DNA from: a virus
Lineage: Duplodnaviria; Caudoviricetes
Reading direction: 5' to 3' (one strand)
IMG/VR virus record: IMGVR_UViG_3300048819_000116
Coordinates: 1,570-65,569 of that record
DNA: 64,000 nt
In this document: one piece after another, positions 26,092-33,492 of the stretch
Position numbering within the stretch: position 1 is the stretch's first letter
Layout: each line of letters begins with the position of its first letter
Translations under genes and position numbers: made by a program
The notes under the pieces: generated by a model
Database searches by the model: none
What the model was told of the DNA's origin: nothing
Seen by the model: only the letters and a program-made list of their open reading frames with translations

Positions 26092-29000
26092 ATGGCTGAT
26101 CCGGCTGACGACCCCGACAACGACGCGCGCGCTTCCGCAGCGGTCGCGGAGCCCGAGGAGCAGGACGCGCAGCAGCAGCCGCAGGCCCCTCGCGGCGGAG
26201 TCCCGGTAGGCCCGCAGCAGGCCCCCGGCACCTCGCAGGCCGACGTCGACCAGAGTTTCGCCGCAGCGGGCTATGGGAAGCCCTCCGCAGGCTACACGGG
26301 CGGCCCGCTTGCCCCTCCCGGGACACCGGACACGCCGCAGGTCCAGTCGCCGGAGGACCGCTACAAGGAAGCCTACGGGGCGGCGGACAAGCAGTTCAGC
26401 GACGCCTACTTCAAGGCCAACCCGTTCAAGACCAGCTTCGACCTGCCCGACACGCCGCGCAACTGGTACGCCGCAGCGGAGCGGGCGCAGGACCAGAAGG
26501 ACGCGCTTGCCCAGAGGCAGGCGCAGATAGCCGAGAGGCAGCAGGCCCTCCAGCAGAGGCAGCAGCGCGTGGCGACGGCGACGCAGAGGGAAAACGACAT
26601 GCGGGCGAACGGACAGAAGTTCTTCCGCGACCCCGAGGGCAACATCCAGCCGGTGCTCGAGCCCGGGACGGGGCGGCCCATCTACGACAAGACGCCGTGG
26701 GAGGAGGGGGTGGACCCGAAGACGGGGGCACCCGCGCTCGCCATGACGGACCAGTACGGCCAGCGCCAGTTCAAGAGCTTCCCCATCGTGCCAGGCGGCG
26801 ACCCGAACGACACGCAGCTTTACTACCGGATGCCGGACGGGACGACGAAGCCCGCGGGCGACGCGGCGGACTTGGCCAAGAGCCCCGACTACCAGACGGC
26901 GAAGGCCGCCAGGGAGACGCTTAAAAACGTCCACAAGAACCAGTGGAACGAGGCGCTTTCCGGCATGGCCGAGGTCGTCGGCAAGACGAAGGACGACATC
27001 GAGCAGGCGAACCAGCGTCTCACCGACCTGCAAAGCCAAAGCGACCAGAACGCGCAGGGAATCGCCGCGGCCAGCGCCGACCCGAACCTCAACGAGACGC
27101 AGGGCATCTTCGACTCCTCCCCATCCGACAAGTCGCTCAAGGCGCAGGCGCAGCTTACCATGCTGCAAAGGCAGCAGCAGGCCATCGAGAATGAGAGGCA
27201 GGGGCTCACGGCGTCGCTGAAGAAGGGCGGCCAGCTCTACGAGACGAACGCCGAGGCCAAGCTCCAGTATGCCATCCATCAGGACCTTTTCCGGCACGGG
27301 GCCTACCAGCACGCGATCGACCAGCGGGCGGCGGCGATCACGCACGCAGGCGGCGACCCCGCGAAGGACCCGATTCTCCAGCAACTCCAGATAGCGCAGG
27401 CGAACCACGCAAGCGGCGCCGCCTCCGGTGTCACCATGTCCGCCCAGCGTGCGCAGCAGCGGCAGGCGAACCCGCCAGTTGCCCCCGCACTTCCCGGCAC
27501 GCCCCCGCCCGACCAGCCGCCTCCGGCCGGTCCAGCAGCAGGTGGAGCGCCGCCCGCCCCCGGTTCCAGCCCTGCTCCCGCGCCGGGCACTCCTGCCGCC
27601 CCGCCGCCGTCCCAGACAGGAACGCCGACCCCTCCGCCGGGTCCCGCGCCACTTGTGGACCGCTTTGCGCAGACGCAGCAGGGGAAACAGCCGGTGGGAA
27701 TCCTTGGGGCGCTCATCAGCGCGAACCAGCGGGCCGAAAAGCCGCTTCCGATGATCGGGAGCGAGTCGGCTGGGACCAAGGGCGGCCTATTCACGATACC
27801 GAAGGTGTACGGCACGGGGGCCATTCCCGGTATCCTGAACGCAGCGAACGAGTTCACCGCTGGCCTCACATCGCCCGAGAACGCCGCCCTTCTGGCAACG
27901 ACGGGCGGCGCTGGCGTTGTCGGGGACATTGCCGCCGGTACGCGCCTCGCCTTGACCGTAAAGGGGGCGCAGGTAGCCGCCTTGGCGGGCTTCACGGCGC
28001 AGGGGGCAGGTGATACGATAGAAAAGACCAAGGCCGCCTATACCGTTCTCCATGACCCCAAGGCGACACGGGCCGACAAAGCCAAGGCGGTTGCCGCGGC
28101 CATCCTTTCCGGGGCCGTAACGGCAGCGGGAGCGCACGGCACAAGGGAATTGGCGACAGCCCCCAAGGGCCGCGTGATGCCCGAGAGCCCCGCCGCTGAG
28201 TTCCACCCCGAGGCCGGGACCGACCAAACGGGCAGGGCCGCGAAGCCGACGGTCGTCCCGACAGCCGCAACGCCGCCCCCTGCCGCTCCTCCGGCAGCCG
28301 CACCCCCCGCCGGGGAGCAGCCGTCGAATCCCGCTACCGCGCCGGGATCAACCCCCCTCCAGCCGACCCATGCCGAGTTCACGGACAACAGCCCAGAGGC
28401 GGTAGCCGCCCGCGCAAAGGCGAATGAGCCCCAGATGGACCCCGAGCTTCGCGCCGAGCTATTGAAGCAAGGCGTTCACCCACCCGAGGCCCCCGCCGCC
28501 GCCAAAGGCTCCCTTCCCCCGGACGCCAAGGTGACGTACCTCGGCAAGAAGGAGCCTGTGCTGAAGGGCGTGGGCCAGCCGGAGGACCACTGGCAGGTCG
28601 CGCTCCCCGGCGAGCCCCGCGGAGTCACCGTGACCCGCAGCGAATTAGAGAAGCAGGGAATCGACGTCAGCAAACTGCCGACCGACGAGGCGGCCAAACA
28701 AGGAGAACCAACCAATGCCCAAGAAACTGTTCAGCGCCCTAGCGAAAGCGGGGACAACGCCCGAGGCCCCGCCCCCCAAGGTGAGCCGAAAAACCCGCAA
28801 GCTGTTCGACAAGCGGACAGTGGAGGAGCAGCCGCCGTCGAGGCCGAACCACCTCGCGGAAATGTCGCACCACAGCCGGATGAAGGAGCACCACGAGAGG
28901 GCGGCGTATCACCGGAACGAGGCGGCGCACCACGAGAGGATGTTCCAAATGCACCGGCAGATGCACGAGGTGCAGAGCGTCCCGCAGAACCCGCCGGGGC

Positions 29001-32000
29001 CAGCACACCCGCCGGGGGTGACAGCGGAGCCGTCGGCGAAGGGGTAACGCCGAAGAAGGGCGAGCCCACCTGGCAGAAGTTCCCCGCAAGCGAGAAGTCC
29101 CTGGATGTTCCGAGGGGTGAGATGCCGCAGGTAAAGAGCGAGGACCGCCCCGCGCTAGTCGATGCGCTGAAGGAGAAGGGCATCGCGTCCAAGAACCGCA
29201 TGATGAAGGTCGCGGATTTGAAGCCCACGCAGGCCGAGTTCTCGCCCGAGAAGGTGCAGGCTGCGAGGGAGCACAAGGGGAGCGACCGGAAGATCCTCGT
29301 CTCCAAGGACGGCTACATCGTGGACGGGCACCATCAGTGGATGGCCGACAAGCAGGACGGATCAGATAACATCCCCGTCACGCAGATCGACGCGCCCATC
29401 CGCAAGCTGCTGCCGGAGGTGAGTGCCTTCGAGAAGGCCAAGACCGGCGAGGGTCCGAAGGAGACGCGGGCGCCGGAGGAGCAGCCGCACGCGGTCGTGG
29501 AGAAGGACGGCAAGGATACGAAGATCACGCCGACGCCCCACGCGGAAGCCGCCGTCTCGAAACTGGCCACCCCGAAGCAGATCAAGGCGCAGAAGGCGTT
29601 CCTTCAGGACGCGGTTGCCGAGGCGCTGAAAACGGCGAAGCCGGAGGCTGACTTCAAAGCGCCGCCGCGCCCGACGTTTCTAGACCCGAAGAAGCAGGCG
29701 AGGTACGACGCTGTGGCGGAAAAAGCCAAGGACCCCGGCAAGGTCACGTTCAGCGTGCCCGGAGACGGCGAGTACAAGATTCGCAACACGAAGGAGGCGA
29801 TCACCGAGTTTCAGAAGCGGCTGAAGTCATTCGGTGGCAGCGAACTGCGCCCGCCGACCATCCCCGCGAAGGCCGTACCGAAGCTGACGCCCGAGGAACT
29901 GGCGGAGCACAAGGTCGAGCCGGAGGTGCCGGGAGTCACCACCCCGGAGAAGGGCGTAGTCTCAGGCTCCAAGGCCGAGGCGTGGGCGGATAAGGTCATC
30001 AAGGCCGGGCAGGGCAAGGTGCGCAGCGGCGTGTCCCCCTCCGAGTTTGCAGCCTTCGCCGTCAAGGGCGTCGCAATAGCCGAGCGCGGCGTCCGCGACT
30101 TCGCCAAGTGGAGCGCCGAGATGGTGAAGGAGTTTGGCGATAAGATTCGCCCGCACCTGCAAGACCTGCACGACGCGATCATGAAGCACGCACCGGAGGA
30201 GGCCGCGCAGGCGCAGAAGCCGGAGCCCGTGCCGGGAAAGCCGGGGAAGTTCTACCGCAGCCTACCCGATACCGAGAGAAGCGCCAATGAGAACATCGTG
30301 CGGCAGGTGTATGAGCGCCGTTCGCAGAAGCCCGACTTGGACGCAGCGCAGGCGATCATCGACCACCACGGGCCTGAAAAGGCGATGGAGATTGCCATGG
30401 CGCGCGCCGACGACGGCGTGCCCTACCCGGTAAAGACCGCGATCTACGTGCGACTAGCCAAGGCCGCGAACGACCGCCTGATGGACGCCAAGACGCCGGA
30501 GGAGGCTGCGCAGGCCATCCGCGACAGGAACAAACTCTCCGCCATCCGCGCCCCGCACGAGACGGAGGTCGGGCAGGGAACCTCCATGCTCCAGAACCTC
30601 CAGGAGGGCGAGCGCCATGGGGCCATCGAGCGCCACCTGTCGGACGTCGCGCAGGAGCAGGACCGCAAACTCGGGAGCGACGGAAAGAAGGCGCTGGACG
30701 AGTCCCAGAAGGCGATTGAGGACGCGAAGGAGGAGGCGATCGAAAAGGCGAGCGATGAAATCCGCGACAAGCTAAGGACGCTGAAGATCGGCAAGCCCGC
30801 GTGGGAAAAGTACCGCGAGGACGCGGGCGACCGGATCGTCAAGATGATGGAGTCCCCCGCCGAGGCGAAGGAGCAGCCTGCGCTGAAGGAATTCACCGAC
30901 CGCGTGGTGGCCGAGGTTAAGGGGAGGCTGAAGGAGTTCATGCCGGAGCGCCCCGAGAGTGCCCCGCCGCCGACCCCGGGCGACATCCTGCGGGAGGCGC
31001 TGGACAACAAGGAGCGTTACGGTCAAGTGCTGACCAGCGTCCGAAACGCCGTGGCCAAGAAGTTCGGGGAAGGCACCCCGCCCGTGGACCTCCTCGACAC
31101 GGAACTCTCCAACCTCGGGGTGACGCCTTGGAGCGAGCGAATCCTGACAAAGGCGGTCAAGGGCGCGCACGACGCCATGGGCGAGAAGGTGTCGGAGATA
31201 GCGCGGGAGCACCTGTCCAAGACCGACAGGAAGGCTGGCGACATCGCAAACGCTCTCGTCAAGGACGCTGGCATCTCCGGCCCTGACGCGACCCGCCTGG
31301 AGTCGGACCTGACGGACAGGGCCAAGGAGCTCTACGCCGCCGCCCGCGACAAGGCGCTGGACGATCTCAAGAAGCGGTTCACCAACAAGGGCGGCGCGGG
31401 CAAGGTCTTCAGCGCGGTCCAGAAGGCGGTCAAGCTCTCCAACTTGGGCGCGATGGACAGGGCTGACCTGCACGACGCCGTTGTCAGCGAACTGGGGCTC
31501 CCCAAGGCGAGCCCGGAGCGCGTCCAGAAGATCGGTCAATTGGCCGACAAGGTGGAGCGGGCGCCGGATGCCGCTTCGCGTGCGCGCGCCACCTTGGACC
31601 TTGCGACGGAACTGCACGACGCCAAGAACCCGTCGAAGATGGGCAGGCACATCGACACGGCGACGAGCCTCTGGTACGCCAACATGCTCTCGGGGACGAC
31701 CGTCCCCATAAAGGCCCTTGGCGACATCACGAACGGGATGTTGCAGCTTGCGACCACCGTCATTGCCAACCCGGCCCACGCTGGCGACATCCTGAAGGGA
31801 TGGGCTTCCGGCGTGCCGGAGGGCTTGGAGCGGTTCGCGTCCGTGATGAAAACAGGCCGCGGATCAATCGACTTCGACGCATTGAAGGGGGGCGACACGA
31901 CCGAAAAGACGCTGCCTTCCGGCAAGAAGACGGTCACGGACCCACGCCCGGTGTCGGCGCTCGAGAACGTGAAGGACAAGCCGGGAGAGCCCGTTCTAAA

Positions 32001-33492
32001 CAAGCTGCGCACCTACCCGCAACTCATGAAGTACGTGCCGAGGGCCTTCCGCGCCATCGAGGCCATGTTCGCCGTGACGCACCGGGAAGCCTACGCGAGG
32101 CTTGCCGCGACGAAGCTCCTGGAGGGCCAGTACAAGGGGGCAGAACTGGCGGCCAAGGTGAAGGAAACGCTCGGCGTCACCCCGCAGCAATTCGAGGTGT
32201 TCCGCCAGCGCGCAGAGGCCGAAGGCTTCAAGGGTGCCGACGCGGGGCTCCGCGTGGCCCAAATGGTTGAGGAGCACCGGGAGGGCAGCGCCGCAGGGCG
32301 CGAGGTGAATGCGGTCTCCGACAAGTACATGCGCGAGGGCGTCTATGCGCAGGAGCCGACCGGGCTCCTCGGCATGATTTACCGCGTGGTGTCCGACGCC
32401 GTGAACAGCAAGGTCAAGGTCGCTGGCATCCCCATACTGAAGCCCGTGATCCCCTTCATGCGGACGCTGACGAACATGGTCAACGAGTCCGTCAATTACA
32501 CGCCGTGGGGGGCCAAGCGGGCGCTGCACGGGCAGTACGACGAGAACCGCGTCTATCAGAAGCCGGAGGGCGACGAGAGGAACCGCCTGCTCGTCAAGTC
32601 GGCGGCGGGAACGATGCTCATGGGCTCCCTCTACAATGCCGCCGTGAACCACGACCCCAAGGACCACACGGGCTTTGCGATCACCGGGGCGGGCCCGAGC
32701 GACTACGCGCACGCGACGCAGCTTCGCCAGCAGGGGGAGCGTGCGCACTCATGGCGCATCGCGGGGAAGTGGTACAACTACATGAACACGCCGCTCGCAG
32801 TGCCGCTGTCCATCATCGGCAACATGGCCGACGCGCACCGTTTCCAGAAGCAGAAGGGCGAGCTTCTTTTTGGCAACAAGGGCGTTGATGCCGTTGCCAG
32901 CGCCCTTGGGCGAAGCATCATCGACCAGCCGATGCTGGAGGGCCTGTCGAACATGGCCGAACTCGCCTCCGGCAAAACGACGCAGGCCAAGATCGGGCGC
33001 TTCCTCGCCAGCTCCGCAGCCTCTGCCGCCATCCCGGCGGATGCGTTGGTCCGCCAAATAGACCAAGCCTTCGACCCCCGGACGCGGGAAGCGAGTTCGC
33101 TTGGGGACATAGCGAAGGCCCAGATTCCCTTTGAGCGGCGGAGCCTGCCCGTCCGCACGGACGCCCTTGGGGACGCGATCACCTACTCCCCCGGTCAGCG
33201 GTTTGTCAGCACGGAGAAGAACGACCCGCTGCGCCGCGCCATGTCGGACCGCAACATCGCGCCCTCCGAGCCCGAGCGCCAGACGAAGCTCGGCAACCGG
33301 ACGATGACCGACAAGGAGTACAACTTCTACAAGACCGTGAGCGGTCGCCTCATAAAGGCGCGGCTTGACGCCCTGCGTCCCGGCTTCTACGGAAAGACGG
33401 ACGCCGCCGTGCAAAACGAGGTGCGCCGGGTCGAGGAAACGGAGAGGAAAAAGGTGAGGGAGCAGATTGGCCGCATGGCGGGCGTACACTAA
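26092..33492 (+). CDS. giant internal virion/ejection (large polyvalent) protein with ParB-like domain
   Basis: 2466 aa; Pro-rich linkers, Gly/Ala hydrophobic segment, DLKPTQ...ILVSKDGYIVDGHHQW (ParB/Srx-like), long helical C-terminal region with IPF.RT..N motif. Confidence 0.7.
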   Translation: MADPADDPDNDARASAAVAEPEEQDAQQQPQAPRGGVPVGPQQAPGTSQADVDQSFAAAGYGKPSAGYTGGPLAPPGTPDTPQVQSPEDRYKEAYGAADKQFSDAYFKANPFKTSFDLPDTPRNWYAAAERAQDQKDALAQRQAQIAERQQALQQRQQRVATATQRENDMRANGQKFFRDPEGNIQPVLEPGTGRPIYDKTPWEEGVDPKTGAPALAMTDQYGQRQFKSFPIVPGGDPNDTQLYYRMPDGTTKPAGDAADLAKSPDYQTAKAARETLKNVHKNQWNEALSGMAEVVGKTKDDIEQANQRLTDLQSQSDQNAQGIAAASADPNLNETQGIFDSSPSDKSLKAQAQLTMLQRQQQAIENERQGLTASLKKGGQLYETNAEAKLQYAIHQDLFRHGAYQHAIDQRAAAITHAGGDPAKDPILQQLQIAQANHASGAASGVTMSAQRAQQRQANPPVAPALPGTPPPDQPPPAGPAAGGAPPAPGSSPAPAPGTPAAPPPSQTGTPTPPPGPAPLVDRFAQTQQGKQPVGILGALISANQRAEKPLPMIGSESAGTKGGLFTIPKVYGTGAIPGILNAANEFTAGLTSPENAALLATTGGAGVVGDIAAGTRLALTVKGAQVAALAGFTAQGAGDTIEKTKAAYTVLHDPKATRADKAKAVAAAILSGAVTAAGAHGTRELATAPKGRVMPESPAAEFHPEAGTDQTGRAAKPTVVPTAATPPPAAPPAAAPPAGEQPSNPATAPGSTPLQPTHAEFTDNSPEAVAARAKANEPQMDPELRAELLKQGVHPPEAPAAAKGSLPPDAKVTYLGKKEPVLKGVGQPEDHWQVALPGEPRGVTVTRSELEKQGIDVSKLPTDEAAKQGEPTNAQETVQRPSESGDNARGPAPQGEPKNPQAVRQADSGGAAAVEAEPPRGNVAPQPDEGAPREGGVSPERGGAPREDVPNAPADARGAERPAEPAGASTPAGGDSGAVGEGVTPKKGEPTWQKFPASEKSLDVPRGEMPQVKSEDRPALVDALKEKGIASKNRMMKVADLKPTQAEFSPEKVQAAREHKGSDRKILVSKDGYIVDGHHQWMADKQDGSDNIPVTQIDAPIRKLLPEVSAFEKAKTGEGPKETRAPEEQPHAVVEKDGKDTKITPTPHAEAAVSKLATPKQIKAQKAFLQDAVAEALKTAKPEADFKAPPRPTFLDPKKQARYDAVAEKAKDPGKVTFSVPGDGEYKIRNTKEAITEFQKRLKSFGGSELRPPTIPAKAVPKLTPEELAEHKVEPEVPGVTTPEKGVVSGSKAEAWADKVIKAGQGKVRSGVSPSEFAAFAVKGVAIAERGVRDFAKWSAEMVKEFGDKIRPHLQDLHDAIMKHAPEEAAQAQKPEPVPGKPGKFYRSLPDTERSANENIVRQVYERRSQKPDLDAAQAIIDHHGPEKAMEIAMARADDGVPYPVKTAIYVRLAKAANDRLMDAKTPEEAAQAIRDRNKLSAIRAPHETEVGQGTSMLQNLQEGERHGAIERHLSDVAQEQDRKLGSDGKKALDESQKAIEDAKEEAIEKASDEIRDKLRTLKIGKPAWEKYREDAGDRIVKMMESPAEAKEQPALKEFTDRVVAEVKGRLKEFMPERPESAPPPTPGDILREALDNKERYGQVLTSVRNAVAKKFGEGTPPVDLLDTELSNLGVTPWSERILTKAVKGAHDAMGEKVSEIAREHLSKTDRKAGDIANALVKDAGISGPDATRLESDLTDRAKELYAAARDKALDDLKKRFTNKGGAGKVFSAVQKAVKLSNLGAMDRADLHDAVVSELGLPKASPERVQKIGQLADKVERAPDAASRARATLDLATELHDAKNPSKMGRHIDTATSLWYANMLSGTTVPIKALGDITNGMLQLATTVIANPAHAGDILKGWASGVPEGLERFASVMKTGRGSIDFDALKGGDTTEKTLPSGKKTVTDPRPVSALENVKDKPGEPVLNKLRTYPQLMKYVPRAFRAIEAMFAVTHREAYARLAATKLLEGQYKGAELAAKVKETLGVTPQQFEVFRQRAEAEGFKGADAGLRVAQMVEEHREGSAAGREVNAVSDKYMREGVYAQEPTGLLGMIYRVVSDAVNSKVKVAGIPILKPVIPFMRTLTNMVNESVNYTPWGAKRALHGQYDENRVYQKPEGDERNRLLVKSAAGTMLMGSLYNAAVNHDPKDHTGFAITGAGPSDYAHATQLRQQGERAHSWRIAGKWYNYMNTPLAVPLSIIGNMADAHRFQKQKGELLFGNKGVDAVASALGRSIIDQPMLEGLSNMAELASGKTTQAKIGRFLASSAASAAIPADALVRQIDQAFDPRTREASSLGDIAKAQIPFERRSLPVRTDALGDAITYSPGQRFVSTEKNDPLRRAMSDRNIAPSEPERQTKLGNRTMTDKEYNFYKTVSGRLIKARLDALRPGFYGKTDAAVQNEVRRVEETERKKVREQIGRMAGVH
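28715..29047 (+). CDS. nested out-of-frame His-rich 110-aa protein
   Basis: AAGGAGA 8 nt before ATG; third codon positions strongly G/C in this frame but often A/T in the host frame. Confidence 0.6.
   Translation: MPKKLFSALAKAGTTPEAPPPKVSRKTRKLFDKRTVEEQPPSRPNHLAEMSHHSRMKEHHERAAYHRNEAAHHERMFQMHRQMHEVQSVPQNPPGPAHPPGVTAEPSAKG

Follow-up and report, generated by a model that had tools for sequence, protein, structure and literature searches.

A small gene probably embedded in the +1 frame of a disordered linker of a giant DarB-like phage virion gene

Does the DNA of a linker in a giant phage virion gene also encode a second, small protein in another frame? The question arises from a 64,000-nt stretch of a virus assigned to Caudoviricetes (Duplodnaviria), positions 1,570 to 65,569 of IMG/VR record IMGVR_UViG_3300048819_000116, which is referred to here as the window; it makes up nearly all of that 65.6-kb record and has a GC content of 64%. 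A giant open reading frame (ORF) in the window, annotated here as a DarB-like polyvalent virion protein and called the host ORF, wholly contains a 110-codon ORF on the same strand in its +1 frame, called the nested gene (Table 1). The original prediction, made from the sequence alone, had placed this small frame at 28696-29047; the ORF is real and occupies 28715-29047, the earlier start having taken in the leader, and the AAGGAGA reported eight nucleotides before its ATG is present at 28700-28706. We conclude that 28715-29047 is very probably a genuine protein-coding gene, lying in the +1 frame where the virion gene encodes a disordered Gly/Ala/Pro/Glu linker, as judged from codon usage and from comparison with relatives.

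The codon bias of the overlap had been attributed to the nested rather than the host frame, and per-frame composition and a codon index agree on this. GC at third codon positions (GC3) of the host frame falls from 0.84 over the whole ORF to 0.41-0.51 across 28702-29030, and GC at host position 1, which is nested position 3, rises across the overlap to 0.82-0.92, so that the excess sought by computing GC3 frame by frame was found. A codon-similarity index, for which 43 genes of the genome served as reference (mean 0.70, standard deviation 0.06, minimum 0.59), takes a value of 0.70 for the nested frame over the overlap and 0.365 for the host frame. The overlap is the only clear place along the giant ORF where the index of the +1 frame beats that of the host frame.

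Nine sequences were compared across the locus: the window, two IMG/VR contigs (L002 and L003), the short ENA contigs L007-L011, on which gene callers had called the nested frame, and a 66.9-kb ENA contig (L013). The Shine-Dalgarno-like element (SD), the ATG and the stop are kept at one place in all nine; AAGGAGA itself is invariant, three bases of the spacer behind it vary, and the stop is TAA in two sequences, TGA in four and TAG in three, always at the same site. The indels that separate the variants (3, 21, 21 and 39 nt) are all multiples of three. From the residues NHLAEM to the stop, the nested frame has 7 nonsynonymous (N) to 13 synonymous (S) differences (ratio 0.14, binomial p = 2e-5) and the host frame 15 N to 5 S (ratio 1.2). 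The same opposition is seen in the His core (1 N : 8 S in the nested and 9 N : 0 S in the host frame) and in the N-terminal 31 codons of the window-type sequences (3 N : 7 S and 11 N : 1 S, respectively). The nested protein hardly differs from one variant to another in its C-terminal His-helix region. In the 222 nt of host-only flank upstream, variable sites fall on the three host codon positions in the proportions 8:3:17, the normal third-position excess. The window and L003 show 0 host-synonymous differences in 107 conserved overlap codons, compared with 10-35 per 100 codons elsewhere, a low divergence that is partly due to a recently shared module.

Comparison of dN/dS by frame, which had been proposed as a check, therefore gave N:S values that are low in the nested frame and high in the host frame, and relatives with stops in the nested frame and an intact host frame, which had been named as grounds for giving up the idea, were absent among the nine. 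This pattern argues for protein-level selection on the nested frame, with the host frame free to change residues. The nested gene is under purifying selection along its length, with conserved start, SD and stop, and the host frame appears to be kept merely as an uninterrupted flexible linker whose residues change as if of no matter.

That the host frame is kept open at all is a separate observation. It is open across the overlap in 9/9 sequences; with the nested protein taken as given, chance alone would leave it free of stops with a probability of 0.075. Behind the nested stop come three different host modules, all joined in frame: the ParB domain directly in the window type, an extra ~100 aa in L013, and an unrelated module in L007. 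Two distant homologues of the host protein, P0010 and P0011 (~40% identity), have in one polypeptide the order small module, linker of ~110-135 aa, ParB domain. Together these three observations argue that both frames are maintained. The original prediction had posed a choice between two proteins being made and a giant ORF that grew by reading through a captured small gene; the choice itself does not hold up, as the two are not exclusive, and the two open frames in all nine sequences and the stand-alone homologues described below fit read-through of an older gene. A compensated double frameshift of the giant ORF was ruled out, the nested frame being bounded by stops and having its own conserved start, and so was an assembly artefact, the arrangement recurring in independent peat, lake-water and soil metagenome assemblies.

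The nested gene has relatives outside this locus, which were reached through its sister orthologue and which place its N-terminal part in a widespread family of phage proteins, a link missing from the original prediction. In L007, L008 and L013 the orthologue begins MPFKSKAQ and has the same start as the window protein; the L007-type locus is ~98% identical in DNA to its sister L013, and in a DNA alignment the window type differs from the L007/L013 type by two 21-nt deletions, which remove the motif, and one 3-nt indel. A family profile built from 103 IMG/VR members gives the L007 type 63.8 bits (shuffled controls at most 11), and the L007-type orthologue matches phrog_1375 with E = 1e-3, compared with E = 3e-7 for stand-alone family members. 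In 68 Flavobacterium Elemovirus phages an 11-kb "structural protein" gene has a +1-frame match to the MPFKSKAQ N-terminus, as has an 11.6-kb gene of podovirus ctfjg026; in the two GenBank records that were opened, MT497078 (Elemovirus) and ctfjg026, the giant gene alone is annotated over the +1 ORF. A degenerate DNA pattern for MPFKSKAQ was found on at least 120 IMG/VR contigs, with ~2 chance matches estimated. Among the matches listed, the family ORFs encode very basic products of 37-57 aa that end in a Lys-rich tail. An open frame of 300 aa or more encloses 68 of them completely, the nested frame being +1 in 68/68; 31 stand alone, and a few form the N-terminal domains of longer proteins. The stand-alone members start at the same Met with nothing upstream.

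Single-base codon differences within the embedded set repeat the pattern of the window's clade (nested 1450 N : 2578 S, host 4011 N : 1155 S), and in hosts of at most 45% GC only 1.3% of other +1 runs are as long as the nested one. The hosts are giant ORFs of 950-3100 aa or acidic proteins of ~400 aa, and in L017 the ~400-aa acidic host lies between a portal gene and a gene for a capsid-like structural protein, which is the scaffold position. Homologues recognisable at the protein level span 31-66% GC. A large protein database holds 142 clusters of the family, all "hypothetical" and none with a Pfam domain; Pfam and PHROG searches with the ~400-aa scaffold-position hosts and the longer family fusions gave no informative match, and the literature searched contained no account of this family, nor of small genes lying within polyvalent or scaffold-position genes. 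Compared with the phrog_1375-like family, the window copy has lost the N-terminal motif and carries an ~80-aa extension with a His-stripe helix, an extension seen in none of the family ORFs listed from those contigs.

The earlier suggestion that stand-alone homologues could be sought thus holds in part: they exist and are connected through the L007-type orthologue, but in direct searches the window's 110-aa protein is an orphan. It had no match in Pfam or PHROGs, and neither tblastn against 50,697 phage records nor a scan of metagenome contigs reached any sequence outside the close clade. When 1.84 billion representatives were searched with a profile, the only matches were the cluster of the query itself and P0008, a tandem-repeat protein matched spuriously; ESM Atlas and PDB sequence searches were empty. 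With a stand-alone 43-aa member as query, tblastn had no match among phages at E <= 0.1, for which the short length and high lysine content of that member are the probable cause, and a scan of the window found no second copy of an MPFKSKAQ-family gene. From the shared SD and ATG, the locus and the shared sequence, the window copy is best described as a derived orthologue rather than a recognisable family member.

Several observations count against the nested gene, or against parts of the interpretation given to it. When the host peptide is re-coded with the genome's codon usage, a +1 frame of this length is open 66% of the time by chance; AGGAG is common in the genome, with 222 sites, 36 of which then have an ORF start; and a promoter and terminator scan of 27800-29800 on the + strand found none. 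An open frame and an SD alone are not significant, and the signal lies in codon usage together with the comparison with relatives. Those relatives are close kin (93-98% identity in the module), and their substitution counts are small and not fully independent. On the family profile the window protein itself scores 1.8 bits (shuffled controls up to 8.4), a low value explained by the two 21-nt deletions that removed the motif, and its family link rests on L007-type orthology. Contigs from two peat metatranscriptome studies cover 28654-28885 and 28684-28834, which is weak evidence of transcription; they carry no strand, frame or transcript-end information, and DNA carry-over is possible, while stretches without RNA-contig cover in runs X18 and X19 are uninformative either way. 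The idea that the small gene is the older partner is suggested by codon usage and stand-alone homologues rather than by a rooted phylogeny.

The same observations allow other explanations to be weighed. The small gene could be a relic that was swallowed by read-through and is no longer translated, its codon usage and conservation reflecting recency; this would suit the closeness of the relatives in the module, the loss from the window type of the family's most conserved N-terminal motif, and expression contigs that do not resolve the frame. However, the substitutions are strongly biased to nested-frame synonymous sites, the opposite of the bias expected of a dead frame under a live host, the stop has been held through three codons and the ATG and SD have been held while the spacer varies, and the nested frame has survived indels and three recombinant contexts, all of which makes a relic improbable. 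Still more improbable, in our view, is that there is no true overlap but a row of three genes, the small one standing between an upstream gene and a ParB-domain gene that begins at ATG 29122, with the host frame open by chance. Amino-acid-level evolution of the host frame in the overlap is neutral, as this arrangement would have it, the chance of 0.075 for an open host frame is not negligible, and callers did use the in-frame ATG 29122, which follows GAGGGG, on short contigs; but the upstream frame has no stop before 33492, so that ribosomes must read through, the host frame is open in 9/9 variants with three different downstream modules joined in frame, and P0010 and P0011 carry module, linker and ParB domain in one polypeptide.

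Internal initiation would be unnecessary if ribosomes on the giant ORF underwent programmed +1 frameshifting and made a truncated product of ~985 aa whose tail would be His-rich. Upstream of its ATG the nested frame stays open for 22 codons (132 codons from stop to stop), and in prfB an SD-like element upstream of the shift site stimulates a +1 shift. The 8-nt spacing is nevertheless the geometry of initiation and not that of prfB, the ATG is invariant, stand-alone members start at exactly this Met, and no slippery or hungry-codon site was seen by eye in 28649-28715, where no systematic search was run; we rate frameshifting as very improbable. The least credible proposal is that a nucleic-acid element, either an RNA structure or a recombination site, is conserved here instead of a second protein. 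The nested stop does coincide with a module junction and the module is unusually conserved compared with its flanks, but variable sites follow the three-base period of the nested frame, its start and stop are preserved, and homologues across 31-66% GC are recognised at the protein level, leaving hardly any room for such an element.

In the preferred reading, a translated gene inside a translated gene, ribosomes would start independently at the internal SD and ATG on the late mRNA of the giant gene, as they do for lambda Rz1 within Rz, and both proteins would be made at the same time. In overlapping pairs, the older frame is usually recognised by codon usage that resembles the genome's (PMC3494269). 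The genome-like codon usage of the nested frame and the free-standing homologues therefore suggest that it was the large genes that extended, by read-through, over the small one. The small gene would then be the older partner, its sister orthologue being a canonical member of a widespread family of 40-55-aa, very basic proteins that also occurs free-standing, and the giant ORF, or in other phages the scaffold-position gene, would have come to read through it and to use the other frame as a linker. Within the clade the small protein would have gained a C-terminal 36-residue helix with a five-His stripe and HxxM/MxxH pairs, and in the window's lineage the ancestral N-terminal motif would then have been largely deleted. 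A code-level reason for the exclusive +1 arrangement may be that a nested Lys codon AAG reads as a host Glu codon GAA, turning a Lys-rich tail into an acidic linker; a host-frame stop would also need a T at nested position 3, which is rare, and this too fits the arrangement.

The helical character that had been suggested for the nested protein is borne out by AlphaFold2, which predicts one long helix for the window type (residues 52-87, pLDDT up to ~90). For the L007 type, modelled with the family alignment, the prediction is a helical hairpin at 6-26 (pLDDT 82-95), a disordered Pro-rich stretch and a long helix at 60-99 (pLDDT ~80-93). His 52, 59, 66, 73 and 80 of the window protein have an exact 7-residue spacing and form one stripe on its helix, which also bears five pairs of the HxxM or MxxH type; with a pI of 10.7 the N-terminal half is strongly basic, and the helix is near neutral. 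In L011 (235-528), a 39-nt in-frame deletion between two direct repeats encoding HHER leaves the His helix 13 residues shorter. HxxM and MxxH are the Ag/Cu-binding motifs of SilE/PcoE-type peptides, and the several pairs on the nested helix resemble these, a resemblance only; the nested protein differs in having no signal peptide and no sequence similarity to them, as no signal-like N-terminus was found and no family match was obtained in Pfam, PDB or ESM Atlas. Tentatively, and with low confidence, the product might be a small basic protein of head assembly or of the virion, whose His/Met helix could bind a transition metal, as the original prediction had proposed for a metal, or form a pH-sensitive coiled coil.

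Embedded +1 genes are classic in phages, with Rz/Rz1 (in T7, 18.7 in 18.5) and phiX174 E in D as examples. Lambda Rz1, an outer-membrane lipoprotein spanin, is wholly enclosed by Rz, shares its strand, has a start of its own in the +1 frame and is made along with the Rz protein; the window's small ORF is alike in lying wholly inside a larger one, on the same strand, in the +1 frame and with its own start. It differs in that its protein has no signal peptide or lipobox, its host encodes a virion polyvalent protein and not a lysis protein, and the embedded gene looks older. A search of the nested protein for the marks of an Rz1-like outer-membrane spanin found no Cys or lipobox and no hydrophobic signal. 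Genes E in the external scaffold gene D and B in A of phiX174 are the classic cases of overprinting in morphogenesis genes, to which the present case is similar in that the hosts of the wider family include scaffold-position genes. Overprinting models hold that the embedded frame is usually young and has atypical codon usage (PMC3494269), whereas here the embedded frame is genome-like and has free-standing homologues, and it is the host frame that is atypical.

The host ORF matches PHROG families only at aa 999-1147, to phrog_2859, phrog_11358 and ParB-like ones, and at the DNA level this part matches genes named "DarB-like antirestriction" in Bcep22-like Burkholderia phages and in Ralstonia phages. 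Its protein homologues are giant, contain LPD domains and bear the names PLxRFG, LPD38 or DarB-like, and in the relative L013 an SU10-type portal gene comes next after the giant gene. Giant size, a multi-domain make-up with DdrB-like ParB and LPD domains and a phage head-gene context are the marks of polyvalent proteins, a phage class whose description includes the DdrB-like ParB domain in the passages shown of Iyer et al. (2017; PMC5512222). The term "reading frame" occurs once in that paper, and its passages shown do not mention embedded genes in linkers. As a multi-domain giant of virion type with a DdrB-like ParB domain and an adjacent portal gene, the host protein is similar to P1 DarB/DdrB and Bcep22 gp75. 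The nested gene sets it apart: Bcep22 gp75, Ralstonia YL4, Itty13 and L014 have no MPFKSKAQ-family member near their ParB domain.

Upstream of the nested gene the host protein has a small module that shows normal host-frame selection, travels with the nested gene and keeps ~40% identity in the distant P0010 and P0011. Its left homology boundary, 28493, is common to L002, L003 and the 46-kb soil contig of search X10, and DNA contigs place the module in lake-water and soil metagenomes, again with this boundary. The giant protein has sharp mosaic boundaries at 28493 and 29047-29050, between which small module and nested gene move as one unit.

Table 1. Features of the nested gene and of its host ORF, in window coordinates (SD, Shine-Dalgarno-like element)
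Feature	Position	Strand	Description and basis
Host ORF	26092..33492	+	2466 aa; DarB-like polyvalent virion protein; ORF listing, PHROG, DNA and protein matches
Host-frame module	28493..28714	+	~74 aa; travels with the nested gene; normal host-frame selection
SD, AAGGAGA	28700..28706	+	8 nt before the nested ATG; weak evidence alone
Nested gene	28715..29047	+	110 aa, ATG to TAA; +1 frame of ORF 26092-33492, wholly inside
N-terminal basic part	28715..28807	+	aa 1-31; probable remnant of the MPFKSKAQ-family helical hairpin after two 21-nt deletions; DNA alignment with the L007/L013 type
His/Met-rich amphipathic helix	28847..28975	+	aa 45-87, predicted; His 52, 59, 66, 73, 80; AlphaFold2 and frame-specific selection
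Nested stop codon	29045..29047	+	doubles as a recombination junction in the host protein; followed by one of three different host modules
DdrB-like ParB domain of host protein	29086..29532	+	downstream of the overlap; PHROGs at aa 999-1147; alignments to P0010 and P0011; name after the passages shown of PMC5512222

Other features of the host gene and of its relatives were seen in passing. The in-frame ATG at 29122-29124 stands just before the ParB domain, and from it a shorter ParB-domain product might be initiated internally; on L009 and L010 callers chose it as the start of the downstream gene. In the Pro/Ala-rich linker at 27412-27760 all three + frames have a similar codon index (0.54-0.65), and a 108-codon +1 ORF with a GTG start is open at 27428-27754, probably a low-complexity effect. 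L009 has a host-frame stop inside the ParB domain, and in L013 (3752-6028) the part of the giant ORF that precedes the nested gene is spread over three frames; each is either an assembly error or a broken copy.

Linkers in other phages also drew attention. In L014 (3801-4100; P0010 aa ~1100-1200, ~40% identity) the linker before the ParB domain has a 66-aa +1 ORF whose ATG arises from host "NA" (AAT GCC) at the equivalent place, with a host GC3 of 0.45 compared with 0.77 overall and a peptide unrelated to the MPFKSKAQ family. In Bcep22 gp75 (L137, 3579-3760; GenBank AY349011) host GC3 dips to 0.55-0.61 in the linker before the ParB domain, where a 54-codon +1 ORF from an "ANA" ATG is perhaps a further example of a gene embedded in such a position. 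The ~400-aa acidic hosts in L017 (9451-10647), L033, L044, L049, L057 and L066 share G-V-Y-K-V-D-L-S-K-P-P just upstream of the embedded gene; I-D-V-S-K-L-P in the window is faintly like it, which hints at a common cassette.

Standard gene callers drop embedded genes of this kind, as the Elemovirus and ctfjg026 records illustrate. The window locus is a clear-cut case with statistical support, in which the embedded frame carries all of the protein-level selection and the giant gene uses the DNA as a spacer, which inverts the usual picture of overprinting, and the wider set points to a family-wide rule by which the small gene is always +1, among the matches listed, and lies in charged linkers of head genes. 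We put at about even the chances of a broader proposal: that in phages of 31-66% GC the acidic or disordered linkers of scaffold-position and giant polyvalent genes systematically conceal, in their +1 frame, the widespread 40-55-aa basic family, that the large genes were laid over the small ones in an arrangement that would fix co-expression with head assembly, and that in this clade rebuilding of the small protein produced a His-stripe helix with a new function. Should the small protein prove to be a virion or assembly factor, models of head assembly, and of how anti-defence polyvalent proteins are delivered, would have lacked one of their components until now.

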